Source: a virus
Direction: 5' to 3' (one strand)
Length of the DNA stretch: 64,000 nt
Virus record (IMG/VR): IMGVR_UViG_3300046777_001575
Location: 1 to 64,000 of that record
Both the position numbers and the translations under genes were made by a program. The notes beneath the pieces are model-generated. The model saw nothing but the letters and a program-made list of their open reading frames with translations. It searched no databases and was not told the origin of the DNA. Of the stretch, positions 17,671 to 59,361 are shown piece by piece; position 1 is the first letter of the stretch; each line of letters opens with the position of its first letter.

Positions 17671-18308
17671 TATACTTCTTCCAAAGTTACAGAGACATTC
17701 CAGTAGTCAAACTTTGTTCCTCTTTTTTCAACTGAGTAATTAAAATTACTAATAAACATTTCTATTAGTTGATTATACTGTCTAAGACGATCATACGGGT
17801 CTGGCTGACCATTAAAAACATCTTTTTTGTCATACGCAAGAAAAACCCAGAAAGAGTCTTTATGATTTTCATACCACTCAAGCATATCTGCTCCACCTGC
17901 GCCACCATCTGTTGTATATGATGTATGTGGCGATATGCCAGTTTCTGCATTAAATGCTGGAATATTAGAATGAGATCTAGACGGAATCATATTCCAACTG
18001 GTACTAAGTTTTAATTTATCTGCAATATGATAGGATCTCATTCTTCCATTAATCATTCTTTCACGCTTTTCAATACGTTCATCTGAAAACTCTAATGGTG
18101 ATCTGTTGTCATCTGTTAAAATTAAAAACTGATTAATTAGTGTGTCGTCTGGTTCACCAGTTGTATCTGCACCAACTTCTAACCCATATGGAACATATAA
18201 CTTATTAATTATGGTGCCTGAATTTTCAGACCAAAGCATACCACTAGGTCTACTATATCTTTTTCTTCCTTGGATATAAGAGTACCTTGGATCAATTTCG
18301 TCTGCCAC
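17670..18308 (-). CDS. Distal tail-like minor tail protein
   Basis: Immediately after the tape measure; [21 protein letters not shown]. Confidence 0.65.
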
Positions 18309-21300
18309 TTATACCAATCCCCCTAATTCTTCTGTCTTCTGTTTGTCTAATTGTTGACATTACTGCCTGTGCAATCTCGTTTGGATTAGCATCTGTCTTT
18401 GCATTAACAGTTAATGTATATGTATTATTATACACTGCTCCCCCTGGGTTTTTACCACTATTCATTGCTCTGAGAGTATCAACACCATGTGTATCGACTG
18501 CATACTTACTCATTATAAATTCTCCTGGAGTTAACATTGCTGGGATAGTATCTGTTCCTCTTGCAAAACCACCACTAGCAAAATATTTAGGAGGTACTAT
18601 TCCACCCATGCTAAAACCAAATCTACCAAACACGCTCTTTAAAGCATTAGTTACTGTTGCAACAGGTTTTGTAACTATATTTTTTACTGCTGATGCAACA
18701 TTGGATACCCCAGTTGCAACTGCCTTGGCTACTGTAGAAACAGTACTTGCAACTGTTTTTACTACCGCAGTTGCTGGCTTTGTAACTGCTGCTACAACCT
18801 TTGCAATTGGCTGATTTACACCTAAATTCCACCCAACAGAAGGAACGGATGTTGTTTTTGTTAATGGGCTTCCACCAAGTGGATTAAATGTAGGGGTTGT
18901 TGTTGCTGTAGGCTTAGGAGTAGGTACTGGATTTGGTGTTGGATTTGGTGTTGGATTTGGTGTAGGGGTAGGATCTGGTGTAGGATCTGGCTTTGGTGTA
19001 GGGGTAGGGTCTGGCTTTGGTGTAGGGGTAGGGTCTGGGGTCGGAGTAGGCTCTGGTGTTGGTTCTGGTGTAGGCTCTGGTGTAGGGGTAGGCTCTGGTG
19101 TACCAGATGTTGCTCCAGTGATTGCATCATTGCCACTTGACTGTTGATTATTATATGCCTGTATTAATTTGTCTTGAGTATTTAAAGCAAGTTGCATTGA
19201 CTCTATAAACTGCTTACTTCTTACCATAGCAAGATCTACCTGATTTTTAATTGCTTCCCAAGCATCTCTTGTTTTTCCAAGAACAGTTAAATTTTCAATA
19301 TCAGTTTTTAATTGAATTTGTTTTAAACGAATAAATTCTTGAGCAGGTTCTATCTTCTTTTCTTCTAAATCAAATATCTCATTTTGCAAATCTTTAATAT
19401 CAGACTCAAGTTCTTTCCTAGTTCTATATGTTTTTGTAACTGGGTCATAGGCTTTTACTGAGTTGAGTTCATACTGTCTAGATTGCTCTAATGCTTCTCT
19501 CTGCTTTGTTACAGCATCAGCAGCCTGCTGTGCTCTCATTTCTTGTGCAGCCCTTGCCGCTGCTGCTATATCTCCAGATGTTAGAGCCTCAGCAAGTGTT
19601 AGTTGGCCTCTTTGCTGATTAGCAATAGCAGCATTAGCCTTTTCAACATCGTCTAGTGCTTTGATTCTTTCATCATATTTTTCATTAATTTTTTGCTCTT
19701 GATCTTCAATAGCCTTTAAGGATGCTTCCTTATCATCAATTTTATATTGAATTCCAGCAATAGTATTTTGTGCTTCCTCAATTATTTTATTGCTTTCTTT
19801 AGTGTCTAAATTAAACTTTATTTGAAGTGCAGTTTCTTCAACATCAAAGGCCTCCATAGCGTTACTAAATCCTTGATCAAACATGTCTTGCATAAACCCA
19901 ATAGTGCTCTTTAGTTGATTTAGTCTTTCATTAAAATCACTCACCATCTTATTTAGTTCATTTTGTGCAGCAATAATTTGTGCTCTATCTGCACCCTTAC
20001 TTATTAAACTGTTTATTCTTGATTGTTGAGCAGCAATAGCATTTTCCATTGATCTTAAGTTTTCATCAGAGCCAATTGCAAAAGCAGTTTCTGAACTGTA
20101 TTGTTGTCTAATTCTATTTTCTTGAACTCTATCTTTCTTAAATTGAGCAATGTCTGTTTTTATTCCTGAAACTGCTGCAGCCTTTTCTTGTGCAATAGTT
20201 AATGCTTTATATTTTGCTATAAGTGATTTTAAGGTTTTATCGTTAACCCCATTTGCAATTGCTGCTGCAATTGTTTTATCAGAAATTAATTCGTATGCAT
20301 TGGCAACTGGCACTCCAAGTTTAGACAACTTATCGAATGCAATAGTTTGATTTGATAATGCTTTAGACTCTTCTTCCATGCTAGAATTAAAATCTCCCAT
20401 GGTGATTGAATACAAAGCCTCTTGAATATTTTTAGCATCTCTTTTTAGTGCAATAATATTTCCCTTGTTGTCAAACTTAAACAAAGAATTTTTTCTCTTT
20501 TCATATTCTTTTGGATCCATGCCAACAATTAGTTCAATAAGGTCCTGACTTCCACCTAGTGCTCGAATATCATTTTCTATACCACTAAATACATTTATTG
20601 TCTTGCTGCCTCCAAATAATTTATCCAATGCCTTACGAGAAGCAGACCAGCCTTCTGTAACTTTGATTTGATTCATTCTTACATCTCTAAGTTTCTTTAC
20701 AAGGTCGTCAAGTGGAGAAGCCTCAACCTTGCTTCCTCCACCAGTATTGCCACCTGTTGGAGCATTTGTATTAACTTGAACATTATCAACAACAGCCTTG
20801 TTTCCTTGAGCCTCTATATATTTTTGTACAATATAGGATTTGCTTCCAGTAATACCAGCACCACCTCTTGGGCCAGTTTCTTTACGCCAAGCCTTGAAAT
20901 CTTCGCTTTCAAGTATCTGTGGTTCTGGAACATTAATTAATGTAGAGATAGTAGTTGTATAAACTTTTTGCTGATCTTCAGTTAGAGTATTGAAATATGC
21001 TTCATCAAATGCTGCAGTTCCCTTAACCTGTGGCATAATTTCATAAACAATTTTTGCTGTTAAATCTTTGCTTCCTTCAATGCTGTCAAGCATTTTGTTT
21101 AGTCTGTCGTATGCTTCTTTATTCTTTGGATCTATGTAATAACTTACCATTACATCTGATGGTATAACAGCATTAAGATTATTTAACTTAATTATATTTT
21201 TTGTAAAATCAAGAGCATCTGAGTCTTTTTCAAATGCTTCTACCTTAGTAATAAATTTTGTTTGTACTGTTTTATTGATTTTATTGTCTGCACCAAGAAT

Positions 21301-24300
21301 ATTTTGTGCTGCAACACCAATTGACTCAGAAGTTGCACCACTAAACTTTGTAATAATATTCATCATCTTTGGAGCAATATCTTTATTGTCTGTTGCTAAC
21401 TGAAGAAGGCTTCTAAACACTGCTGGAGGTATATCGCCACTTGCCATCTTTGCCTGAATCAAGAACTCTTGTCCACTATCAATAGCACCAGACTTTCTCA
21501 AATCTCCTGCTTGCTGATTAACAACATCAAGATAAGCCAATTGATTTGGATCATTCTTATATTTTGCAGTAGTAGCCTTTTTCATTCCAGACATCATTGC
21601 TTCTTGAAGTCCTCCAGCACTATTGTACTGGCTAACAATGTCTCCTTGCAATGCTGCTTGGGCACCTGTTAGTTTATCTCTTTCTTTGATATACCTGGTT
21701 TGCATTTCATTGGCTTCATTAATTTTACCCTGCAACTTTAACTCTTCAATTTTCTTTTGATAATACATATCAAATGAATCAAGCATTTGCTTGTTTTGCT
21801 CCATAGCAATTTTTGCATCAACTGCATATGCTGCTCCTAAAGTCCCTGCTTGTTTTGTAAATTTCTTTGATGCAAAATAGCCTCCGATAGCACCTGCTGC
21901 TGCACCAATTCCTCCACCAATTATTGCTCCAACAACGTTTCCAACTACTGGAACAGCGGTACCAATTGCTCCACCAATTGCTGCGCCTGCTGCTGCTCCT
22001 CCAAGAGCAGAAGCACCTATTCCAACCTTTTGCATTGTTTTTTGTCCAGCAAGTTTGGTTATAGGATTTGCATTTTGAATATTTGAGATACTGCTCTTCA
22101 TATTCTTAGAATTTTCTTGAATCATTTTCATTCTAATTTCAAGCGGCTTATCTAAAAGGTTTTCTCCATTAGGTCCTAGAAGACTTTCTAGTTGAGCAAT
22201 AACCTTAAGACCAATTGACATGTCTCCTGCTTGTCTTGCAGCATTCATTGCTAAACTCTTTGCCTGACCTATATCCATAGCACCTGACATAATTGCAGAA
22301 GATAACTGACTGCTCAAATCTTTTACTGCAACATTTCCCTTGCCTGCAGCATTTTGTTCAGCAATTCTCTTTGTTAATGCTTTACCTTCTGCAGTCTGAG
22401 TAAATGCTTCTCCATACGTTGTCTTTCCTGTTGCTGGACCAAGCATTGAAAAAGAGTTTTTGCGTCTCAGGTCCATTTGTTCAGATGCTGTTACTTTACC
22501 ACTAAACTTTGCTATTTCATTAATTGCAGAAGTTGTTCCTTTAAACTTTTCGCTTTCTTCCAATACCTTTTTCTGTGCTCCGTCAAATGCCATTCTTAGC
22601 GCAACAAAGGATCCAACTGTTGCTGCAAGACCAATTGCTAGTGCTGCTGCTGGACTCTTTAGCATTGGCAAAATCATTGACAATCCCATTAAAGGCATCA
22701 TAACCTTTTGTGATATTTCTCCAACTTTGCCTGGGGCCATAGATCCAATCATTGCTGCTCCAGAAGCAATTCCTACTGCTCCCCCAAGACCCATCCCTGG
22801 TCGTTTACCTGCATCAATTCTTGCTTGTCTTTTTGCTGCTCTATTTTCAGCAAACTTAGTTAATCTTCCCATTGGCGTTCTTGCTTTTGCTTCTGCTGCT
22901 GCTCTTGCATCAATAATTGATTGCTGGTATGCAACCTTTGCAGCCAACTTACTTCTTTTTTCTTCTAATGCTGCTTGTTTTCTTCTTCCCCGCATAACTG
23001 GATCAATTGGTCCAGTAGTTCCATACATAGCAGTTTTGTTTGCATTAATTCTTGCTTGTGTTCTTGCTTCTGCTCTTTGTCTTTTTTCAATTTGGCGACG
23101 TAAAGATTTTGCATCAGCATCTATTGGTCCTGTTCCATACAACAATGTTCTTGATGCTGCTGCTGCTGATTGAGAAAGAGTTGTTCCGATTGTACTACCA
23201 ACAGATCTTGCTTCTGCAATAGATCCTCTTGCTCCATCTATTAATGCTGTTGCTACTGTGCTCCTTGCTTCTGGTGCATCGGATTTTCCACGCAAGACCA
23301 TAGGCTTTTGACGAATTTTTGGCTCTGTTGATGCTGGGGCTAGTCTTGTATCCTTTGTACTTCCAGTAGATGACTTAACTCCAGCAGGCTTACTTGTTGT
23401 CTTTGGTTTTTTTGTTTTTCCAGTTTTTGGATCTTCTACTACTTCGTCTGGTTTAATTAAAATAGATGTATGAAGTTTGTGTATTTTTTTCCAATCAACC
23501 TTTTTACCTTCTCTAAGTCTATCGACCATTGCTTGATAATATGGTCTTTCTTCTGGACTAAGGTCCATAGTTGCTAGTGTTTTTTCTAGTTTAGGTAAAA
23601 CTCTATCAATTTCAGCATTCATTGCATTGTGATATTCTTGAGCAGTCATCCCCTTTGCAATATCTGCTGTTGCGTTTCCAAACCAGAATGGAGATTTTCC
23701 TGCTGCAGGGCCCTTAACACCACTCAGGTTTATTTTTGCCATCTCTTCCATTGAAGGAAGATTTTTTACAAAGTCTCTCTTGCCAGATGCTCTATCAAAT
23801 ACTCCTGCTGCTCCAACATCTGCAATAACATTTCCACCTAAGTTTCCAGCCTTTAGGTCTTTGTCTATTCTAAGGTTTGCTGCTACAAGTTGTCTAAAAT
23901 ACTGTTCTTTTGTAAAGTTCTTGCCCATCTTTGAAGAATCAAACCTTGCATCATATGGAGACTCTAATACAATTATCTTTCTCTTACCGCTTGGGTCTGT
24001 AGGATCAATCATTGTCCTTACAGTTTGTTTTGGAGCATCTAGTCCATGAACATCACGAGCAATTTGAGTTGCTCTTTGTTCTGCAAGTGCTCCCTTTTCA
24101 TCAAGCATAGGCTTAACAAATACTCTTGATCCATCTGGCTTTTCATATAGTCCACCTAGGCCACTAACAGGGAAACTGAATCCAGTAGTTGGAGAGATCT
24201 GTTTTCCAAAGTCTGTTGGAGATAACTTGCCAGACTTGGTTTTTGCTGCCTCTTTTGCAATATCCTTTAGTATCTTTACATTCTTTGCTTGGCTTGGGTT

Positions 24301-27240
24301 TGCTGCTCTTTTTGCTGCTTCATCACTTCTGCGCTTAGATTCTTCATCTTGGCTTATTGATACACGATGACCAGAGCCAAGTCTGTTCATATTTACAACA
24401 GTTCCATCATTAAGTGTAACAGTTGAAGATCCAGTCTTAACAGCCCCACTCTTTTTGCTTACTCTTTCTTCAATAGTAAATGATTTGATAAGTCCCTTTT
24501 CAACTGCATTACTAAGAATCTTTCTGCTTTCTTCTGGAGTTGTTCCAAGACCTTTTCCAAGCAAGAACTTTGTAGATGTTTGATACAACTTTTGAGCATC
24601 CCTATATACAGTGCTTGAAGCAATCTCTGGACGTTCTGCTGGAATTCTCTTTGTAAAAATGTCACGAACTAAATTATCATTTACTCCTTTTATCTTCCCA
24701 TCTGCAAAATCTTGTTTAATTATTTCAATTATTGCACGATCCATTGCCTCAACACTTGCTGCTGGAAGTCTAGAAGGGCTCCACTTTCCTGGACCAAGTT
24801 TTTCCCACTCGGCTATAAATATTTTTGGATCTACACCTGCACTAGAAGTCATAGACTTATTTAAGTGCTCTGGGAAAGTAAATGCAAGTTTATGAAGTGT
24901 GGCTGTTGTTGCTGGAAGACCCTGTGATTTTAAAATTGCTTCAAGTGCTCTAAGTTTACCCTTTTGATCATCAGACAGAAACGCATTATCTCTTATGATG
25001 TCAGAAATAAGTTTTTGTTCACTCTTTCCACCAACGTGTGTGATATTTGTTTTTGTTGCTACATCTACTCCAGTGCTTCCCTCATTAAATCCCTGTACTT
25101 TTCTACCTGCAACCAATTGTGCAATCATTGGTCTGTTTGCTGGATCTTGTGCTGATTTTGCTGGAATAACTGCTTCTCCAGGTGTAAGCATTGTTGGAAC
25201 AGAGTCGGTATTACCGCTTCCTGGAACTTGCGTAGTTCCTGTAGAATACTTCTTTAGTCCTGGACCCTTACCTCCACCTTTAACTGGACCCGTGAAGCCT
25301 ATTTGTGCTGCAATTGCTCTCTTATATGCTGATGCAAGTGAGTTAACTGCTGCTGCCTCAGAAGTAAATGTTTGTTGAAGTCTTTGATGTACTTGGTCAA
25401 GGGATGCAGCAACTGCTGATGCTTCTAACTGCTCTTTAGTTAGATAAGATGTTTGTTCTCCTAAAATCTTGCTTGTATTTCCAGTTTTGTTATACATTGA
25501 CTTCATGCTTGCAAAAAGTTTAATAATGTTTGCAGCAGCGTTTGCTATCAAACCAAATGTCATAAGGAGAACTGGACCAATTCCAGCAACTGCAACAGTT
25601 AAAATAGTAATAAACTTCTTTGTTCCATCTCCAAGGTTGTTAAACTTATCAAGAACTTTGCCAACAAACTCAACTATAGGGGTAAGTGCTTTTAAGAATT
25701 GTTCTCCTACTGGAGCAAGAGAAGTTTTAAGATCTTCCATAGATTTCTTAAACTTATATGTTGTTGTATTTTGAATCTTATCTAATTCTCGCTGTGACAA
25801 GATAGCAAGTTCTTCTGTAGTTGCCCTTGTTAGACCTAATACTCTTTGCGCTTGTGTACCTTGCGCTGTTACGTTCTGAAATAATGTAGATAGTCTTGAG
25901 AACTGGAACTTACCAAACAACTGTTCAATAGCACGAGCACGATTAAGTGGATCTAAGGTATCTAGTGCCTGTGCAAAACCAACAACAGTAGCCTTTATGT
26001 CTCCCTTATTTGCTTCAACAATGCCACGAATATTAACACCAAGATTTCCAAGCATCTTTGCTGCTTTATCAGATGGATTAATTAATGATGCAAGACCAGA
26101 CTTTAGTGCGTTAGCACCTTCTGATGCGTTGATTCCACCTTCCTTCATTGCTGTAAGGAAGAATGCCAAATCTTCTACATCTCCACCAAGTTGCTTAACA
26201 ACTGGACCAGCCTTTGGAATTGCAACTGTTAAGTCTTCAATTGATACAACAGTTTGGTTTTCAACTGCGTTAAGAAAGTCAATTTTCTTTGCAAGATCTG
26301 CTGAGGCAACACCAAACGCATTTGTTACCGATATTGTTGTTTCCAATGCCTGTGTTTGTTCAACTCCACCAAGAACTGCAAGCCTTGTTGCCTGTGCAAC
26401 CTGTGCAGTTAGTTCTGCCCCCATCTTACCCATTGCTGCTGCATCTGCAGCCATCTTCATGGTGTCTTCAACTGCAACTCCATACTTGGTATATTCTTTA
26501 GCAAGAGTTTGAATCTGCTTTATCATTGCATCTGTTTCTTCTTGCGTTGTAAACATTTCTCCGTATACACGCTTGAATCTGATTGCTTGCTCTTCAAGTT
26601 GCATAAATGTCTTTGAAGCCTGTGCTCCAAGCATTGCCAATGGGACTGTGAAACCAACCATCAACTGACGGCCAGCCCACTGTGTATTCTTACCAAAATT
26701 TAGAAGATTTGTGGATCCTTGTTTTAATAGTTGATTAAGGAGTTGCTGTCTCTGTGCTGCGATTGCTGTTTGAGTGCCTAGATTCTTCATATCTAGGGTA
26801 AGAGGTCTTACAGCGATTGCCTCTAATGCACCATTTGCACCACGACCCAGTTTAATATACTGTGTCTGAATATCTTTTACACGCTCTCGTGCAACCTTGT
26901 TTATTGTTTCAAACTCAGACCTAAATAGTCTTCCAAAGGTTTTTGTGGCTGCTCCAGTGTATCTAAAATATTCTCTGGATGTTAACTTGTTACGTTCTAA
27001 CGCATCAGTAAAATGCTCTGTGCTTGTTGTTACTTGTCGCATAGATGCCTGGAATTGTCCAGTAGCATTTATTGCGTTCATCAAGTTTTTTGCTTGATTT
27101 GCTGATACTGCTGCTGCTGCAGTACCAGACTTTGCCATTTGTGTATGGAAGGCTGATATTTGACGTTGTAGAAGTTTTAGACTTGCTAAAGCATCCGACG
27201 TATCAATATTTACATTAATATTGGATTGAATATCAGCCAT
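18292..27240 (-). CDS. Tape measure protein (2982 aa) with internal kinase-like domain and Pro/Thr tract
   Basis: Very long Ala/Lys/Gln-rich helical ORF following the tail chaperones; tape-measure core near the N-terminus; Gly-rich hydrophobic segments. Confidence 0.93.
18900..19102 (-). repeat. Pro/Thr tandem tract ([14 protein letters not shown]) in tape measure
   Basis: Degenerate repeats such as ggtgtaggggta and ggtgttggattt on the + strand. Confidence 0.9.
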
Positions 27241-45043: not shown

Positions 45044-45457
45044 TTAAAGGGTTTGCCACAATGTTAGATCCTGTAATCCTAAAAGATAACTTGGAGCAAC
45101 ATAGAAATACAATAACTCCTCATCATCCTTTACAAATGTTGAGTTGTCTACTCCTTCGGACATTATTAAAATATTTTTAGAATTTGGCTCAACTACAACA
45201 AACTGGTCTTTAATATAAATATTTTCAATAATAGTATTTTTTTTATTTGTATATATTTTACCATAAAAAGACAAACTTTTATTAAATCCAGAAGTAAATT
45301 TTACTCCATTATGCTTATATAATATTTTTTCATTAGAAAACAAAACTTTATAGTCTTGTTTTTCATAATTTATATTATTTTCTTTACACATTTTTTTTAC
45401 TAGTTTATTAATAGATAATTCTACGCTAGTCTCTATATTATCAACAATGTATTTCAT
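45044..45457 (-). CDS. Hypothetical protein (very AT-rich)
   Basis: ATGA-coupled to the GNAT gene. Confidence 0.5.
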   Translation of the reverse strand: MKYIVDNIETSVELSINKLVKKMCKENNINYEKQDYKVLFSNEKILYKHNGVKFTSGFNKSLSFYGKIYTNKKNTIIENIYIKDQFVVVEPNSKNILIMSEGVDNSTFVKDDEELLYFYVAPSYLLGLQDLTLWQTL

Positions 45458-45963
45458 CTTCTTGAAACCATTCTACCAAAAAAAATATATGGATATATTG
45501 GTTGATCAAATAACTCTTCTCTTAAATCCAATGCTTCTTCTACTGGGGTATCTTTAATACGATCAGTATTTAAAGCAGCAGAAAACAATCTGTTTCCACT
45601 TTCTGGACCATAGTCGTGTTTTAAATTTTTGTTAAATAAAAAATATAGTAATTTTGCACCGTAAGCCAATGCTGCCTTACCTACACCATTATTCCTATAT
45701 ATTGGCGATACATACATTCTGTCTGTAAAAACATCTCCAGAATCATCATGTTTTTTCCATGTTGCGTATACTCCTGGGTAATCATTTAAAATATAGTCTC
45801 CAACATAAACAGACCCGCTTGGATATTTGTCATTAAAGTATACTATTGCTATTCCATCTATAGGGATTTTTCCTTCAAAGAATACATAGTGTACCCATCC
45901 ACCTTCAAGTTCTTCTGGGTGCTTAAGTTCTTTAAAACCAGAAGTGTCTATACGCTCAAACAC
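45454..45963 (-). CDS. GNAT-family acyltransferase
   Basis: DRMYVSPIYRNNGVGKAAL matches acetyl-CoA binding motif A; also GNRLF. Confidence 0.7.
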   Translation of the reverse strand: MFERIDTSGFKELKHPEELEGGWVHYVFFEGKIPIDGIAIVYFNDKYPSGSVYVGDYILNDYPGVYATWKKHDDSGDVFTDRMYVSPIYRNNGVGKAALAYGAKLLYFLFNKNLKHDYGPESGNRLFSAALNTDRIKDTPVEEALDLREELFDQPIYPYIFFGRMVSRR

Positions 45964-45978
45964 AGAAAACTATTCTGA

Positions 45979-47220
45979 TCAGTATCCATCATAGACCAAG
46001 AAATGGTCTGTGTAAAACATATCATATGGTTCACAGTTAATAGAGATAACCTCATGTGGAAGGTTTGAAAGGATGAACTCGGTTACTGGGGTCCATGTGT
46101 TAGTATCTGTTGACCATAGTTCGTCTGTTTCTAATACATCTGCAGCCATTATAATTCTGGCAACACCATCTCTTTTTATAAGCATACCGTGATTTGCTGA
46201 ATAAAACTCTCCGTTTAGAGATACGGCTTGCTCTGCTGTACGTGATCCTATATTTACAATTGTTGTTACCTTATCAGGAACCATCTGAAGATCGGATGGA
46301 TTACGGCTCCAATTAGCAACATCTTGTAGTGTAAAGTTAGATCCTAATCCAGGAATTTCTGTAGAAACAAGTTGATCCCCAACCTTAAGAGTTGATGCCT
46401 GTGTATATCCATTTGTAGTTAAAACTAGTGTATACATACTAACAGATTTACCTGCACCGAATGCTCCGAATGCTGAGAAAGCACCGAAAGCACCGAATGC
46501 TCCGAATGCTGAGAAAGCACCAAAGGCACCGAAGGCTCCGAATGCTGAGAAAGCACCAAAGGCTCCGAAGGCACCAAAGGCACCAAAGGCTCCGAAGGCA
46601 CCGAAGGCACCGAAGGCTCCGAAGGCACTAAATACTGTTGTAACTGATCCAGACTGACTAGAAGTTTGTGAATTACCATTTGCATTTGTAGCATATACAT
46701 TATATGTCTGTGCAGTACCTTGCTCTTGACCAACATCTACAGATGTTGAAGATGTATCTCCTGATTTTCCATCGTCAGAACTCCAACGATAATTAGTAAT
46801 AGCCTTACCACCATTTGCTGGGGCTGACCATGAAACGGTATCTACACCTGCTGAAGGAGATGATGCTGATGGAGCACTTGGCGTTGCTGGGACAGTTGTA
46901 ACTAACACAGAAGATGATACTGAAGAATATGGAGATTCTCCACTAGCATTGATGGCCTTAACTGTAAAGGTATAGTTTGTGTTAGATGACAGTCCTTCTA
47001 TACGAACTGGAGAAGAAGAACCTGTTGCAGTATGACCACCACTAGATAGCACTGTATATGATGTTGCTGCGTATACACCTGATGGGGTAAACGCTACATC
47101 TACTGCGCCATTGTCATATGCTCTATTTGTTCCAACATCTGTTACTGATGTTATTGTTGGTGTTCCTGGGGCCAAAAAGTCATTGGCTCCTTGACTCATT
47201 CTGCCTGCTTGCTTTGACAT
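45979..47220 (-). CDS. FN3-FN3-(F[G/S]A)20-Hint domain protein
   Basis: Two FN3 domains (GLSSNTNYTFTVKAINASG; VSWSAPANGG..ITNY...YNVYATNANG), a tripeptide tract, then a Hint domain: SVSMYTLVLTTNG...LKVGD, SANH, VISINCEPYDMFYTDHFLVYD. Confidence 0.8.
   Translation of the reverse strand: MSKQAGRMSQGANDFLAPGTPTITSVTDVGTNRAYDNGAVDVAFTPSGVYAATSYTVLSSGGHTATGSSSPVRIEGLSSNTNYTFTVKAINASGESPYSSVSSSVLVTTVPATPSAPSASSPSAGVDTVSWSAPANGGKAITNYRWSSDDGKSGDTSSTSVDVGQEQGTAQTYNVYATNANGNSQTSSQSGSVTTVFSAFGAFGAFGAFGAFGAFGAFGAFGAFSAFGAFGAFGAFSAFGAFGAFGAFSAFGAFGAGKSVSMYTLVLTTNGYTQASTLKVGDQLVSTEIPGLGSNFTLQDVANWSRNPSDLQMVPDKVTTIVNIGSRTAEQAVSLNGEFYSANHGMLIKRDGVARIIMAADVLETDELWSTDTNTWTPVTEFILSNLPHEVISINCEPYDMFYTDHFLVYDGY
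46453..46632 (-). repeat. 20 x F-(G/S)-A tripeptide repeat (9-bp units with synonymous variation)
   Basis: 180 nt of ttc/ttt-ggt/gga/agt/tca-gcc/gct/gca units on the minus strand. Confidence 0.95.
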
Positions 47221-47243
47221 ATCTTAATCTCCCTTAATTTGTA

Positions 47244-53540: not shown

Positions 53541-53578
53541 ATAAATTACCCCCTAGAGAAATCTGGGGGGTTTATTTA
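53541..53578. terminator. Bidirectional terminator between convergent genes
   Basis: AAATTA-CCCCCTAGA-GAAA-TCTGGGGGG-TTTATTT. Confidence 0.8.
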
Positions 53579-54528
53579 TCTCTTCTTGGTGGCATTCCAT
53601 ATCCACGATTTTCTATAACAACATGAGAAGAATAGTTAGGAATAAAAGTTAAATATTTTTTAGAAAGTCCAGTAAGTTCACAAAACTGCTGGACTTTTTC
53701 TTTTGGTATATCTAGCATACCTGACATTAATAAGGACAGCCTATCTGTTGATTCTTGCACATGGCTCCAATAAACTTCTTTTCTATCATCTGCCCATGGA
53801 CGTAATGTTTCTCTTGTAACGGTTCCATTTGGCTGCTTATGAGACTCATGGTGAAAAACATCTCTAGTTCCTATTGAATATATTTCCCAATTTGCTGCAA
53901 AAGTTCTTAATGATAAACAGATTTCCTCGGTATTAAAAGATTCTTTTTTTGATATTCCAACCTCGTCAACCCATTTTTTGGGAGCAAAAAGATAACAACA
54001 GGTTGCCCAATATGACCTTACTATTTCATTATTTTTTAAAACACTATACCCTGGAAAACTAAAACCAGGAATAAACTCATTATAGTGGGAGGCATATTTT
54101 GAAAAAGTATCAACACCAAAATCAACTGAATTATCCGACATAAGTTCATAATTTGCTGGAGCATAAGCAATTATAATATTTTTACCTAAAGAGTTTATTT
54201 CTTTATATCTAGTACAAGCCAAATCATCCCATCCAAAAGACGCATAGGTATGAGAATCAAACTGTATAAAAAAATCATACTCCAGGTCAATCTGTATTGC
54301 TAAATTTCTAGCCCAACCAAGTCCACCTCTATATTTAGAAATATCATAATGCAAATACCTAATTTGATTTGAAGGTATAAAAGAAAAATCAAAAGTTTCA
54401 GAATCTTCAGAAACTAAAGAGAAAAACAATCTATCTTTATATTTGGCCTCCTGCCACAGTGATTTGATTGTTGTATAAAATTCTGGATCACAATAATTAA
54501 CAACACTAATTAATATTTTTTCGTTCAT
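53572..54528 (-). CDS. GT60-like glycosyltransferase (Skp1-hydroxyproline GlcNAc-transferase-like)
   Basis: ILISVVNYCDPE..TTIKSL...A....RLFF, RGGLGWARNLA, FFIQFDSH...GWD, EE..LSLRTFAANWEIY, FH match the Gnt1/PF11397-type pattern. Confidence 0.8.
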   Translation of the reverse strand: MNEKILISVVNYCDPEFYTTIKSLWQEAKYKDRLFFSLVSEDSETFDFSFIPSNQIRYLHYDISKYRGGLGWARNLAIQIDLEYDFFIQFDSHTYASFGWDDLACTRYKEINSLGKNIIIAYAPANYELMSDNSVDFGVDTFSKYASHYNEFIPGFSFPGYSVLKNNEIVRSYWATCCYLFAPKKWVDEVGISKKESFNTEEICLSLRTFAANWEIYSIGTRDVFHHESHKQPNGTVTRETLRPWADDRKEVYWSHVQESTDRLSLLMSGMLDIPKEKVQQFCELTGLSKKYLTFIPNYSSHVVIENRGYGMPPRRDK

Positions 54529-55064
54529 TTTTTCTTTCTTATGTGTGTCTCTAGATATTCTGGTCCCTCAACAAAATACCAATGATCTGGTTCTGCAAAA
54601 TGAAAAAAAACCATAGCAACATTATTGTTGCTTGGATTTGGAAAATCTTCTCTCCAGTGTTCTTGATCATTTCCATAATAAGCCAACGCTTGATTTGGCT
54701 TTAAAGAATATGGAACGCCCTCAACAAAAAGGGGCCAGATTTCTTTTTGATATACACATAAGTCTAAAGTATATGTGCAAGCGTTATCATCCTTGTGTCT
54801 ATACAGACTAGCATCTGGGCCTTCATAGTGTGCAAACAACGAGTATGTTGGTAATAAGTTTTCGCTTTTAAAAATTTTTCTAGCAATAGGAACCAGTTTA
54901 ATTGATATTTCTTTTAAAATTGGCAAAGATTTTTCAGAAGCAATATACCTAGAAAACCCATTCTGATATTCAAGACTTTTTGGATCAGGAATAGAACTTA
55001 TTAAATTATCGTAATCTATTTGATTTAAAACATTCTCTATGAGAATAGGATTTTGAATATTCAT
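54525..55064 (-). CDS. 2OG-Fe(II) oxygenase-like protein
   Basis: LYRHKDDNAC...WPLFVE...YYGNDQEHWRE...VFFHF. Confidence 0.75.
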   Translation of the reverse strand: MNIQNPILIENVLNQIDYDNLISSIPDPKSLEYQNGFSRYIASEKSLPILKEISIKLVPIARKIFKSENLLPTYSLFAHYEGPDASLYRHKDDNACTYTLDLCVYQKEIWPLFVEGVPYSLKPNQALAYYGNDQEHWREDFPNPSNNNVAMVFFHFAEPDHWYFVEGPEYLETHIRKKK

Positions 55065-55645
55065 TTAATCCAACTTGCTACAGCATATCTTGTTCCATCA
55101 GTAACTTCTGAAACTGAATGATTATATACATATGTTGATGGGAAAATTATCATTTCATTTGCTTTTGGTTTATATGATATCTCAAATCTTGGAAAGTTTA
55201 TTTCTCCACCAGTATAATTATCGTTTAAATAGTAAACACTAGAAAGTCTTCTATGGTATTGTGGATGATCATCTATATGATTTGTAAAATATTGACCCTT
55301 TCCATATTTTAGAAGTTGATAATTGTCGTGATCAGAAAAATAAACTCCGTAACTAGCCATATATTCTTTTTCTGCAACAACCAAAGTGTTATAAAATAGG
55401 TTAGCAATATTTTTCTGAAATGCATCTACAAGTGTTGAATACTCTTCATCTATACCATTAATAAACGGAACAGATATAGAACTTGTGTTTCTTACTTTTG
55501 TATCTACCCCGCCAATAACTGTTGCAGAAAACCACTCAATACCAGAAGATGTCATTCCTTCTTCTATATCGTTCACTAAATTTTCATGACCATCAATTAG
55601 ATCAGAATAAACAACTATGCCTGGAGCAATTTCTTTTTTTACCAT
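55061..55645 (-). CDS. Prolyl 4-hydroxylase-like 2OG-Fe(II) oxygenase
   Basis: QLLKYGKGQYFTNHID, RRLSSVYYLNDNYTGGEINF, IIFPS, HSVSEVTDGTRYAVASW. Confidence 0.85.
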   Translation of the reverse strand: MVKKEIAPGIVVYSDLIDGHENLVNDIEEGMTSSGIEWFSATVIGGVDTKVRNTSSISVPFINGIDEEYSTLVDAFQKNIANLFYNTLVVAEKEYMASYGVYFSDHDNYQLLKYGKGQYFTNHIDDHPQYHRRLSSVYYLNDNYTGGEINFPRFEISYKPKANEMIIFPSTYVYNHSVSEVTDGTRYAVASWIK

Positions 55646-56328: not shown

Positions 56329-59300
56329 CTAGCACGAGGATAGGCTTCCAAGCGGATCACATGCTCCTGGATACATGCAGTATGGAGAAGGAAGGTTGGC
56401 GTAGTCAGACTGGCTACATGTACGATTTGAACTTGCTGGTGGAGTTGGGGTAGGAGCAGGTGGTGTTGGTGTAGGAGCATAATCTCCCTGACAAATATTT
56501 GGACATGATCCTGGAGTTATACACCATGTTCCATTGCCATAGGTTCCACATGCACCACCATAACTTACGCAAGTATTGCAGTCAGCAGTTGGTGTTGGAG
56601 CAGTTGGTGTTGGTGCAGTTGGTGTTGGAGAACAGTTTGTAGACTGGCAAGCAGGGAAGTCCCCAGTTGTGTATATACATTGACGTGAGTAGCCAGTACC
56701 AGAACCAGAATTATCATATCCTGGAGTTGTATATGAACAGTTTCCTGTTCCACCGCACTGATAACTTTCAGTACACTTCCACTGTGCAGTTACTGCAGTT
56801 GGTGTTGGAGCAGTTGGTGTTGGTGTTGTAGGAACACAACCATTAGTTTGATCTATATTTGGACAAGAACCTGGAGTTACACATGTTCTATAATATTCTG
56901 AACCAGAAGGGCATCCAGAATTTGGTCTTGTTGCATATGATCCATCAGCATATGGAGAATAAGTATTACATGTGTTACAGTCAACTGTTGGAGTTGGGGC
57001 AGTTGGAGTTGGGGCAGTTGGAGTTGGGGTAGATCCACACAAAGACTGAGCATTGGCCAATGCAGTTTGATAATTTGTGGTTACTCCTGATTCAGTACAT
57101 CCTGTTGCACTTTGATATTCTGCTCTAGCAGTATTGCTATTTGGACCATCAATTACTTCTGGGAGACCATTACAGCATCCATAAGCATAATAGAATGTTT
57201 GAGTTGGTGTTGGGGCAGTTGGGGTTGGGGCAGTTGGGGTTGGTGTTTGAGAATATTGATATACAGTTATTCCAGCATTAAGACCACAAATATCTGTTGT
57301 TCCTCCAGCAGGACTCTGAGAAGCAACAGTTCCATTATTTTGTTGAGTTGCACCAACTGTTGTATAATCTAAGTATTCAAATAACCATCCAGAAGCAACA
57401 ATTGCATTTCCTGCAGCAGATTCTGTCATTCCTACAACATTAGGTAATGTACAATTTGCAGGTGGTGTTGGGGTAGGAGCAGGTGGTGTTGGTGTTGGAG
57501 CAGGTGGTGTTGGGGTAGGTGTAGAAGAACATCCTGTTGGTGCAGGTCTTGCAGATACTATTGAGCAATCAATCTTTGTCGCTCCTATTCCACTAAGCAA
57601 GTTTGTGTATACTGAACAAGCCTCATTTATATTTGTTGTCAAAACATTGTTTGCATCAACTGTGTATGATTCTGAATATGGCTGACCGTCAAGGCAATAT
57701 GCAAGATAAACTGTTCCAGGGTTTACAACTGGAACTGATGGGCATCCGCCACCATATCCAAGAAGAGCAACTATTTGCTCACTAGTTAACGATGGATTTG
57801 TTGTTGTTCCAACAACTACAGTTGAACTTGCTGTCGCTGTTCCATATGCTCCACCTCGGCTACCAACGATTACTGGATCGCAATAAGTATAAATGTTATA
57901 TGTTCCTGGGGTTGGTGTTGGTGTTGGGGCTGGATCATTTATACAAGAAACACCCAAACTGGTATACAATGGAGAAGATGCTGTTCCCTGTACACATGTA
58001 AAGTTAGTTGCTCCATTTTGACTTAAACTATTTCCAATTCCAGTACATGCTTCATTTACTGATGTATATCCACCATAAGATATGTCCATACCAGAGTATC
58101 CGTTTATGTATCCACTGCTATCACAATATGCATAGGTTATGTAGATTGGTCCTGATGTTGGTGTTGGTGTTGGTGCTGGAGTTGGTGTTGGGGAAGCACC
58201 AGGAGTTGCAGCAAATGTTATTGATCCTGTAGAACTTTGATATCCAGCACGGGATGCAGTTATATATACTGTATAAGATTGGTTTGGTGTTAGACCGCTA
58301 ATATTAAATTCTTCTGGAAATTCTTGATTCTGTGTTCCTAAAGAAGAAGAATAAGAGTTACTATAGTCGTGATTGGTTATAGTAACATTTGCATAAACGG
58401 AACTAGGATAAACATTCCATCCTGTTGTATATGTAAGTGTTGGCGTTGGAAGCGTTGGCAATGTTGGTGTAGGTGTAGGGGCAGGTGGTGTAGGTGTAGG
58501 GGCAGGTGGTGTAGGTGTAGGGGCAGGTGGTGTAGGTGTAGGGGCAGGTGGTGTTGGTGTAGGGGCAGGTGGTGTAGGTGTAGGGGCAGGTGGTGTTGGT
58601 GTAGGAGCAGTTGGTGTAGGAGCAGTCGGTGTTGGTGTTGGGCTTACTATGTTAAGTAAATTTCCAAAAAAAAACCATGTATCTGAGCCTATCTTTGAAA
58701 GAGTTCCTTTTGAGTACTGACCATCCAAAGAACGAACATTTGATTTGCTATTAAGAAATACCGAAGAATCTTCTTCAGTAATTGTCGTAAGTGCTGTACC
58801 TATTTGAATTATGTCAACAGAATAACCTACAGGAATTTGTACTGAAGAATTTTTTGGAAGAGTTAGAGTGTTTGGAGTAGAAGTAGATAGAAGAATAGTT
58901 TTTCCAATATCTTCTGCAGAGAGTGTAAAACTTTCTGTTTTTGTTATTACTGTTCCAGTGTTTGCAAGTGCTGGATCCAAGTCAAATCTTAAATCTACAG
59001 AATTCCAATCAATACCATTTCCAGCAAGATCTGAGTATGCTGATGTTGCTCCATTAATACCATTAGTAACTGCTGTATCAACATATGCTTTTGTTGCTAG
59101 ATTTGCAGTGTTAGCAATACCATGAACATCTGTAGTCTTTGCGCTATGTGTTGCATCTGCATCTACAAGATTTTGAAGGTGTTTTGCAATAGATGGGTTT
59201 ACTAGGTTTGCAGGATTTACATTTGCGCCATCATAGGCATATGATCCATAGTGATAAAGCCGTAGGGCTGCCTGAATATCTGCAGCATCTGAAAGACCAG

Positions 59301-59361
59301 GCACTTTGGTAGGGAAAAGCCCAGTGCCATTGACGGTATTATCAATATTTTCTGCTGCCAC
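56329..59361 (-). CDS. Pro/Thr-rich, Cys-rich fibre-like virion protein with PASTA domain (1010 aa)
   Basis: Fibre anchor shared with 47244-48941; PTPTPPA linkers; FN3-like domain; PASTA (LPNVVGMTESAA...GTVASQSPAGG); many Cys modules. Confidence 0.8.
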   Translation of the reverse strand: MAAENIDNTVNGTGLFPTKVPGLSDAADIQAALRLYHYGSYAYDGANVNPANLVNPSIAKHLQNLVDADATHSAKTTDVHGIANTANLATKAYVDTAVTNGINGATSAYSDLAGNGIDWNSVDLRFDLDPALANTGTVITKTESFTLSAEDIGKTILLSTSTPNTLTLPKNSSVQIPVGYSVDIIQIGTALTTITEEDSSVFLNSKSNVRSLDGQYSKGTLSKIGSDTWFFFGNLLNIVSPTPTPTAPTPTAPTPTPPAPTPTPPAPTPTPPAPTPTPPAPTPTPPAPTPTPPAPTPTPTLPTLPTPTLTYTTGWNVYPSSVYANVTITNHDYSNSYSSSLGTQNQEFPEEFNISGLTPNQSYTVYITASRAGYQSSTGSITFAATPGASPTPTPAPTPTPTSGPIYITYAYCDSSGYINGYSGMDISYGGYTSVNEACTGIGNSLSQNGATNFTCVQGTASSPLYTSLGVSCINDPAPTPTPTPGTYNIYTYCDPVIVGSRGGAYGTATASSTVVVGTTTNPSLTSEQIVALLGYGGGCPSVPVVNPGTVYLAYCLDGQPYSESYTVDANNVLTTNINEACSVYTNLLSGIGATKIDCSIVSARPAPTGCSSTPTPTPPAPTPTPPAPTPTPPANCTLPNVVGMTESAAGNAIVASGWLFEYLDYTTVGATQQNNGTVASQSPAGGTTDICGLNAGITVYQYSQTPTPTAPTPTAPTPTQTFYYAYGCCNGLPEVIDGPNSNTARAEYQSATGCTESGVTTNYQTALANAQSLCGSTPTPTAPTPTAPTPTVDCNTCNTYSPYADGSYATRPNSGCPSGSEYYRTCVTPGSCPNIDQTNGCVPTTPTPTAPTPTAVTAQWKCTESYQCGGTGNCSYTTPGYDNSGSGTGYSRQCIYTTGDFPACQSTNCSPTPTAPTPTAPTPTADCNTCVSYGGACGTYGNGTWCITPGSCPNICQGDYAPTPTPPAPTPTPPASSNRTCSQSDYANLPSPYCMYPGACDPLGSLSSC
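58441..58642 (-). repeat. (PTPTPPA)n tract with 21-bp tandem units
   Basis: Tandem ggtgtaggtgtaggggcaggt units on the + strand. Confidence 0.95.

Follow-up and report, generated by a model that had tools for sequence, protein, structure and literature searches.

A predicted Hint domain behind FN3 domains and a Phe-Gly-Ala repeat in an uncultivated phage: a probable self-removing C-terminal cap

Introduction

Inteins of replication enzymes, Hedgehog processing domains, and the bacterial intein-like (BIL) and pretoxin modules of bacterial surface proteins all belong to the Hint domains. What would such a domain do at the extreme C-terminus of a phage protein, just behind twenty Phe-Gly-Ala tripeptides? 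The question is raised by a minus-strand gene in positions 1 to 64,000 of the viral record IMGVR_UViG_3300046777_001575 of IMG/VR. This stretch of 64,000 nucleotides is called the window below; its source is the 78.5-kb record of an uncultivated lake phage, ~72% complete by estimate. A first-pass annotation, made from the letters of the window, read the gene product as FN3 domains followed by a (FGA)20 polymer and an intein-like Hint domain. It proposed that an activated ester forms in front of the Hint domain, which either releases the upstream protein or couples it to a partner. The answer that we favour, from sequence comparison and structure models, is that the gene rather probably encodes the precursor of a phage fibre-module appendage protein, whose C-terminal Hint cap removes itself.

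Results

The proposed architecture was borne out: FN3 occurs twice, the (F-[G/S]-A)x20 tract is exact, and a C-terminal domain of 155 residues starts at Ser259 (Table 1). In Pfam, fn3 matched the protein in two stretches (E = 5e-8, 33.4 bits against a cut-off of 25), as a member of the FN3 family should. The C-terminal domain was not named by Pfam, NCBIfam or PHROGs. No Pfam Hint model matched the window protein even at E = 1, and Hint_2 or PT-HINT was reached in just 2 of 32 homologues (E = 0.08-0.13). A DUF6717 label, based on a weak match (E = 0.026-0.17) in 1 of the 32 members, was dropped.

Structure comparison placed the domain among the Hint folds. An AlphaFold2 (AF2) model of the C-terminal domain, built with 32 homologues, had a predicted local distance difference test score (pLDDT) of 89.8 and a predicted template modelling score of 0.82. 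Foldseek against the PDB returned 41 matches at E <= 1e-3, every one a Hint domain, in agreement with the Hint fold that had been suggested for the last ~155 residues. Tetrahymena BUBL BIL2 (6y75) ranked first at E = 1e-7, ahead of 2lwy, the C. thermocellum BIL, and of the Ser1-type Aes123 PolB1 intein; many mini-inteins and Hedgehog followed. A separate comparison by VIA-align, which covered 48,161 chains and did not depend on Foldseek, gave Z = 17.0 to Tetrahymena BIL2 6tmm (root-mean-square deviation 2.2 Å over 137 residues), 16.8 to 2lwy and 16.1 to Hedgehog 1at0. Twenty-nine chains had Z >= 8, all 32 chains at Z >= 5 were Hint domains, and the first unrelated chain stood at Z = 2.4. Sequence homology pointed the same way: a family profile of the domain alone matched 2lwy (E = 2e-7), the gp41-1 intein (3e-6) and the Aes123 PolB1 intein 9hth (4e-6) in the PDB, over block A in gp41-1 and from block B through blocks F/G in 9hth. 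As for Pretoxin-HINT (PF07591), the protein has no C-terminal toxin module, and PT-HINT comes up at E <= 1 in just 2 of 32 members (best 0.13), far below threshold. Judged by model and profile together, the C-terminal domain is a genuine, divergent Hint domain of BIL type.

Table 1. Features of the Hint gene and its surroundings; positions are those of the window
Feature	Positions	Strand	Basis or remark
Whole gene FN3-FN3-(FGA)20-Hint, 413 aa	45979..47220	minus	final gene in tail-fibre block
Shine-Dalgarno AAGGGAG, 8 nt 5' of ATG at 47220	47229..47235	minus	direct sequence reading
FN3 domain 1, ~residues 20-108	46897..47163	minus	Pfam fn3 and AF2 beta-sandwich, pLDDT >90
FN3 domain 2, ~residues 112-195	46636..46887	minus	second fn3 stretch and AF2 beta-sandwich, pLDDT >90
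(F-[G/S]-A)x20 aromatic low-complexity tract, residues 197-256	46453..46632	minus	exact repeat
Predicted scissile junction Lys258/Ser259; Ser259 = Hint position 1 nucleophile	46444..46449	minus	
Hint (BIL-type) domain, residues 259-411	45988..46446	minus	AF2, Foldseek, VIA, profile against PDB
Block B, Ser341-Ala-Asn-His344, = intein Thr(B:7)-x-x-His(B:10)	46189..46200	minus	
Blocks F/G, V391-D411	45988..46050	minus	residue-level hidden Markov model alignment to 9hth, 2lwy, gp41-1
Tail Gly412-Tyr413 and TGA stop	45979..45987	minus	GGA TAC TGA TCA GAA TAG
GNAT-like gene, 169 aa, GTG start, 15 nt past Hint-gene TGA	45454-45963	minus	sub-threshold Pfam
N-acetylglucosamine (GlcNAc)-type glycosyltransferase (PF11397, E = 5e-16) and 2-oxoglutarate (2OG)-Fe(II) oxygenase (PF13640, E = 3e-19)	53572-55645	minus	

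The residues expected for an N-terminal acyl shift are in place. In the VIA superpositions, chain residue 1 of several inteins lies on Ser259 and the final residue on Asp411; in the AF2 model, intein residue 1 falls on model residue 10, which is again Ser259. This is the serine, encoded by codon 46444-46446, that had been pointed out as standing in place of Cys1, and the position was correct. Position 1, usually Cys or Ser in inteins, is Ser in each of 126 aligned relatives, and Cys is found there in the most remote members; among 69 representatives with a resolved N-terminus it is Ser in 59, Cys in 10 and nothing else. The SANH motif taken for block B also fits, as its S-x-x-H was aligned with the intein T-x-x-H by profile-to-PDB comparison, and Ser341-x-x-His344 lies on 'tADH' of 9hth in the hidden Markov model (HMM) alignment. 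Among the unique relatives, B:7 is Ser or Thr in 126/126 and B:10 is His in 126/126. According to PMC4031507, assisting residues sit at these two positions and at F:4, F:13 and G:6.

The other end of the domain departs from the usual pattern. In the window protein the usual Asp of F:4 is Ser393, the usual His of F:13 is Asp400, the usual His of G:6 is Tyr410, the usual Asn of G:7 is Asp411, and the usual Cys, Ser or Thr of +1 is Gly412. These assignments come from alignments in which 'VISINCEPYDMFYTDHFLVYD' is matched to the intein block F/G string VYDIEVDGNHNFFGNDILVH, then Ala from N159A in the construct 9hth, and 'vysincEPydmFFTenmLvyd' to 'VYDIEVDGNHNFFGNDILVHA' of 9hth, where the closing A is the N159A mutation. 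The last strand 'FLVYD' lies on 'ILVHN' of inteins, in a comparison with intein and type A BIL references; BIL type B is marked by the lack of block G similarity. The annotation had described blocks F/G as lacking the terminal His-Asn and ending two residues later. The stop does follow two residues after Asp411, but His-Asn is not simply missing, and Tyr-Asp occupies both positions. More distant family members end in a canonical L-[T/S]-H-N or V-Y-N, so Tyr-Asp is a derived form of His-Asn. Cys396, considered as a class-3 intein nucleophile, was rejected, as it aligns to a Val position of the hydrophobic core, three residues past F:4.

Other parts of the domain are also strongly conserved. The motif 'INCEPYDMF[FY]T' is invariant among the near family, and a family-specific insert between blocks A and B holds the invariant Trp304; there are two invariant Trp in the domain. 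Within the FN3 subgroup, the conservation of Asp411, Gly412 and Tyr413 is 90% or more. The TGA of the window gene falls at the Gln position of the relatives' GYQ[T/I]E, and because this stop shortens the tail of a gene that is otherwise kept, the tail after the Hint is expendable.

Compared with class 1 inteins, Asp411 is an accepted substitute for Asn, but the penultimate residue is Tyr410 instead of His. Furthermore, +1 is Gly412, just two residues follow the Hint, and the host protein is a variable FN3-repeat appendage. Canonical splicing of the window protein is excluded by the Gly at +1 and the penultimate Tyr. Tyr-Asp also differs from the His-Asn of BIL type A; the general BIL features are found, namely Gly at +1, a variable N-terminal cargo (two to four FN3 domains, PASTA or unknown) and hypervariable repeats. 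Asp in place of the terminal Asn is documented and is able to cyclise (PMC4031507). Thus, the earlier statement that Hint domains without a terminal Asn do not splice is fair for this Tyr-Asp/Gly member and too strong for the family, of which about half reads His-Asp/Ser. Because the N-terminal acyl-shift residues are invariant and canonical splicing is excluded, N-terminal autoprocessing at ...FGAGK/S would be the most likely activity of the Hint domain.

Homologues were next compared for what follows the repeat. The search used the FN3 part alone (residues 1-196) and gave relatives ~40-85% identical. Of 108 further proteins, 50-85% identical, 72 carry the Hint and ~33 end a few residues past the aromatic repeat, several of these uncapped proteins being on contigs of 69-118 kb. 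Of 80 further IMG/VR loci, a Hint cap is present in 43 and absent from 32, where the gene stops after the repeat; the other 5 run off the contig. The 32 uncapped genes are followed by >4 kb of contig, and the 1.5 kb next to them encodes no Hint in any reading frame. One homologue, P0249 (66% identical in the FN3 part), reads '...FGFVPNWY/SDERVKQDIEDL...' and has a Peptidase_S74 domain straight after the repeat (E = 7e-12; score 45.9 bits, cut-off 22; 58-position profile matched from 1 to 57); the window protein itself has no Pfam match to Peptidase_S74 (PF13884).

The uncapped genes also tell where the protein may end. Twelve of the 32 end in ...[R/G/W/F]-Tyr-stop, and the Hint subgroup with Tyr at -1 has a matching context before Ser1, e.g. 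'...GGFRWY/SIGSQT'. Because the [R/G/W/F]-Tyr context is common to both, the uncapped proteins naturally end at the point where the capped ones are predicted to be cut. Homologues of the FN3-repeat part occur Hint-capped, uncapped or S74-capped, which argues that the Hint is a removable cap. Judging from these sequences, the cap is dispensable, since a self-cleaving domain can stand in its place, or nothing at all. What remains after maturation is probably FN3-FN3-(FGA)20-GK, its C-terminus free. A further kind of ending was seen in the Hint-less orthologues L099, L107, L112-L122 and L137-L142, which have an FFPP-type repeat and then a small Cys-rich knob (4-8 Cys in ~25 residues).

The repeat in front of the Hint is conserved in kind rather than in sequence. 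In the window protein the Ser variant occupies units 1, 10, 14 and 18, and the other 16/20 have Gly. The DNA of the tract is an imperfect 9-nt repeat (77% matches) inside a 36-nt unit present five times (85% matches; TRF), and the 20 units are written with 9 different 9-mers. Codon pairs compared between units differ synonymously in 262 cases and non-synonymously in 64, the latter all G/S. Since these differences are mainly synonymous, the tract seems to be maintained at the peptide level. It is predicted to be disordered in the full-length AF2 model, made as a monomer (pLDDT 22-28).

Among orthologues that are 50-60% identical, some have F[GS]A tripeptides, some [FY]xFxP pentapeptides and some both. 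In wider relatives the unit is, by lineage, FGA, [F/Y]xFxP, FGFSP, NPGF, NEPAF, FFPP, GFYH or poly-Pro. Gly at every third position is not conserved among the orthologues; its fraction falls to 0-0.13 in those with pentapeptide repeats. A collagen triple helix is ruled out as the conserved feature by this comparison. Because the unit changes between lineages, the conserved property appears to be an aromatic/proline-rich flexible tract and not a collagen helix. Composition was compared in 69 representatives with enough sequence upstream of Ser1. The share of F/Y/W is 22% in the 40 residues before Ser1 and 9% in the rest of the protein, that of F/Y/W/P/G is 57% and 27%, and the entropy is 2.86 and 3.42 bits, respectively. 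The paired Wilcoxon values (p ~1e-9 to 1e-12) are descriptive only, as the proteins are related.

A search with the Hint domain gave 31 clusters when word-indexed, 111 representatives at 50% identity when exhaustive, and 61 IMG/VR loci. A pattern-limited scan of 185,579 prokaryote species genomes gave no relatives of the family, and the window protein and its Hint domain had no tblastn match in 50,697 cultured phage records. The divergent members P0138 and P0067 match cultured jumbo phages at 23-28% identity, among them Dickeya phage AD1 gp108, Erwinia pEa_SNUABM phages, Phage NCTB, Salmonella Sen-NF and Alcaligenes Afa-NA1. In these phages the Hint is terminal, the protein is annotated as 'virion structural' or 'tail', and the gene lies beside tail-fibre genes. 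Across the family the Hint is nearly always terminal, with a median tail of 4 residues (<=20 residues in 61/67). The FN3-repeat-Hint architecture is common in uncultured phages, and we found no paper describing it in the literature within our reach; what a literature search on Hint or BIL domains in phage fibres brought up was either on classical terminase inteins or unrelated.

Two main C-terminal states were seen, His-Asp/Ser in 48 sequences and Tyr-Asp/Gly, the group of the window protein, in 36. The His-Asp/Ser members look splice-competent, and some have C-terminal extensions of 18-96 residues. Co-variation of His at G:6 with Ser at +1 amounts to 4 changes on the tree, with 1 supported independent pair. 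A sister subgroup (P0021-P0031, L028-L053) has an N-terminal PASTA domain instead of FN3 and NPGF/NEPAF repeats; its proteins end in Thr-His-Asp/Ser-x-x-Ile, a splice-competent-looking arrangement with a 4-residue 'C-extein'. In P0107, P0136, P0061, P0078 and P0068, Leu-Val-His-Asp/Ser is followed by acidic extensions of 32-96 residues that appear helical by eye, and these members of the family may genuinely splice or undergo C-terminal cleavage. P0098 (1108 aa) has tandem C-terminal Hints (residues 770-925 and 950-1100), both matched by the family HMM, a layout that recalls the BUBL BIL-X-BIL. Several Hint-bearing genes stand in one tail module of Phage NCTB (LT598654): after the tail protein annotated as containing an intein domain (L063:4496-6477) comes a gene of its own for an 'intein domain protein' of 153 aa, and 1.4 kb further lies one for a 'large intein domain protein' of 1304 aa.

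The Hint gene shares the window with genes for a portal, a maturation protease, a major head protein, a DnaE-like polymerase and tail proteins of very large size, and with the tail-fibre block that it closes. One open reading frame in the tail region (18292-27240, minus strand) is 2982 aa long; directly downstream of it a minor-tail-like protein of 1429 aa (phrog_10359) is encoded. The Hint gene starts 23 nt past the stop of a 565-aa fibre protein with an Mtd_N domain, and an Mtd_N fibre gene is immediately upstream in 52/57 related loci. Promoter-like and terminator-like sites around the Hint gene were not more frequent than in shuffled sequences.

On the 3' side lies a GNAT-like gene whose matches to Acetyltransf_7 and Acetyltransf_1 are sub-threshold in Pfam (E = 0.002-0.004) and whose product has no sequence match in the PDB. 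It is directly 3' of the Hint gene in 49/49 loci that have it, the PASTA-type subgroup included, and it is missing from two subgroups, L022-L026 and L052-L060. A functional coupling of the two genes was considered and found unsupported in view of these missing subgroups, the sub-threshold matches and the lack of a PDB match. Because all contigs belong to one phage lineage, conserved neighbours are weak evidence of functional coupling. The glycosyltransferase and oxygenase genes are 6-8 kb from the Hint gene and adjoin a Pro/Thr-rich fibre-like protein of 1010 aa (56329-59361); oxygenase homologues lie within 8 kb of the Hint gene in 30/61 related loci. The FGA tract is not an obvious substrate of either enzyme, because it has no Pro, Lys or Thr and just 4 Ser.

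Discussion

The sequence and model data are consistent with our postulation of a self-removing cap. After folding, Ser259 would attack the carbonyl of Lys258 in an N-to-O acyl shift aided by Ser341 and His344. The ester would then be resolved, most simply by water, and FN3-FN3-(FGA)20-Gly-Lys would be released with a free C-terminus while the 155-residue Hint is discarded. The working part would be the Ig-like FN3 pair with its flexible, uncharged, Phe-rich tail. The Hint is probably needed only in synthesis or assembly; we guess that it might, for example, keep the sticky repeat soluble or masked. In this scheme we infer that cleavage occurs and when, what becomes of the ester and what the repeat does. 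Of the two fates that the first-pass annotation offered for the ester, simple release is the one we favour; coupling is weakened because close homologues are Hint-less or capped by Peptidase_S74. Ligation is therefore a less likely outcome for the window Hint than self-removal.

Several observations weigh against a self-removing cap. Ser at F:4, Asp at F:13 and Tyr at G:6 depart from the class 1 intein norm, and because three assisting positions differ in this way, the rates of the Hint, and even its activity, are uncertain. The uncapped relatives bear on the dispensability of the cap, not on cleavage. The near invariance of Asp411, despite the apparent loss of canonical C-terminal chemistry, is not explained by the simple model. 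Nor does the model account for the aromatic/proline repeat that consistently precedes the Hint.

Other explanations were weighed against the cap. The Ser259 ester might be attacked by an amine of a virion protein, a host-envelope component, a lipid or a small molecule, and the product would then be covalently attached, by analogy with Hedgehog cholesteroylation or with the BIL-mediated conjugation in Tetrahymena BUBL proteins. We hold such a transfer unlikely, though the best structural match is indeed BUBL BIL2, the ester chemistry is common to Hedgehog and BIL (PMC4031507), the insert with Trp304 could bind a partner, and Asp411 is kept without an obvious role. An activated C-terminus does not seem to be needed for the job of the protein, because close homologues have no Hint or have a Peptidase_S74 cap that only hydrolyses. 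The window protein has no sterol-recognition-like region and just two residues after the Hint, and no conserved partner gene was found; the downstream GNAT-like gene is missing from two subgroups. With the same low probability, the ester would link the Phe-rich tail to a virion-protein amine, an amine of the host cell wall or a lipid hydroxyl, and the His-Asp/Ser subgroup would splice onto short C-terminal peptides. If this were true, the Hint would be a phage-encoded protein-ligation device of Hedgehog or BUBL kind on virion appendages. A quite improbable variant, which we rate below transfer, is ligation of BIL type A, that is, splicing without a +1 nucleophile: Asp411 would cyclise and free Gly-Tyr, whose amine would attack the ester to give FN3-FN3-(FGA)20-GK-GY. 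Type A BILs can join their flanks without a side-chain nucleophile, and a terminal Asp can cyclise (PMC4031507). The conservation of Asp411, Gly412 and Tyr413 in the FN3 subgroup and the His-Asp/Ser sister sequences, some of them extended, would also agree with it. However, the window protein has neither the penultimate His nor the His at F:13, both of which assist cyclisation, the tail is freely shortened and variable in length and sequence, and in BILs cleavage products outweigh ligation (PMC4031507). The functional outcome would, moreover, barely differ from plain removal.

The Hint could also stay on the protein as a non-catalytic knob for binding or oligomerisation at the distal end of a flexible stalk. 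This would suit the replacement of four canonical assisting or terminal residues (F:4, F:13, G:6 and G:7), and the conserved 'INCEPYDMFFT' surface with the two invariant Trp could form a binding site; some uncapped relatives have their small Cys-rich knob at the equivalent place. Against this, Ser1, B:7 and B:10 are invariant, and position 1 is only Ser or Cys across ~100 clusters (50% identity). A retained inactive knob is hard to reconcile with such strictness at position 1, and the cap can be replaced by a known self-cleaving domain or by nothing, so we give this explanation little credence, if slightly more than type A ligation. Least probable of all, in our judgement very much so, is a (Gly-Ala-Phe)n collagen-like triple helix with the Hint as a propeptide that trimerises and registers it. 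The regular Gly of most units here, and of all units in some relatives, a weak Pfam Collagen match (E = 0.33), and Dickeya phage AD1 gp108, which combines true collagen repeats with a terminal Hint, speak for it. The 50-60% identical orthologues with pentapeptide or mixed units, the FFPP, NPGF, GFYH or poly-Pro of wider relatives, the four Gly-to-Ser interruptions in the window tract, and the low pLDDT of the tract in the AF2 model, a monomer only, speak against it. A self-removing cap thus remains the explanation that we prefer.

The family may be useful in several ways. Natural Ser1 Hints with Ser at F:4, Asp at F:13, Tyr at G:6 and Asp at G:7 would serve studies on the uncoupling of cleavage from splicing, and the domains may possibly be used as cleavable tags. 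The constant pairing of the Hint with Phe/Pro-rich disordered repeats raises the question of what role a 'sticky' tail has on virions of abundant freshwater phages.

Comparison with known systems

Among known Hint domains, those most similar to the window Hint are the BILs (2lwy; BUBL BIL2 6tmm/6y75), which share its fold, a nucleophile at position 1, the block B motif and the lack of a +1 nucleophile, and which also occur in variable surface-type proteins and not in conserved enzymes. The expected output of BILs is cleavage rather than splicing (PMC4031507, PMC7765530). Unlike them, the window Hint has Ser instead of Cys as nucleophile, Tyr-Asp instead of His-Asn, Ser at F:4 and Asp at F:13. 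The family Hint is, moreover, nearly always at the extreme C-terminus, phage-encoded, placed behind an aromatic/proline repeat and sub-threshold in Pfam. Hedgehog/Hog (1at0, Z = 16.1) is alike in fold and C-terminal position, and it acts only at its N-terminal junction, releasing the upstream cargo via an ester or thioester, as is proposed here. Its sterol-recognition region is absent from the window protein, which stops two residues past the Hint, and the existence of Hint-less orthologues argues against an obligatory transfer step as in Hedgehog.

The class 1 Ser1 mini-inteins (Aes123 PolB1 9hth and the cyanophage-like gp41-1) give significant profile and fold matches. In contrast to them, the window Hint is not inserted in a conserved host protein, and it has no C-extein and no +1 nucleophile, so that it does not splice as they do. 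The terminal Hints of cultured jumbo phages (vB_DsoM_AD1 gp108, pEa_SNUABM and NCTB) resemble it in standing at the end of a protein near tail-fibre genes, with a tail of ~10 residues, and NCTB annotates its protein as 'tail protein, contains intein domain'. They differ in their Cys1 ... T-x-x-H ... His-Asn and in that the Hint is not preceded by an aromatic repeat; in AD1 the collagen repeats are far upstream of it.

Two systems with unrelated folds show a similar logic. Nup98/Nup145 undergo autoproteolysis at a Ser by an N-to-O acyl shift. As an analogy only, they too have disordered Phe-Gly-rich repeats followed by a domain that cleaves itself at Ser; their autoproteolytic fold is unrelated, and they are eukaryotic and specific to the nuclear pore. 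Peptidase_S74 domains act as intramolecular chaperones on the tail spikes and fibres of phages and drive trimerisation. Like the window Hint, Peptidase_S74 (PF13884) is a C-terminal domain of phage fibres, and it removes itself at a Ser, so that place and presumed logic are the same while fold and family are unrelated. A large phage clade of Hint domains, unrecognised by Pfam and capping fibre-module proteins, would bring into phage fibre maturation a second kind of self-removing C-terminal domain beside Peptidase_S74.

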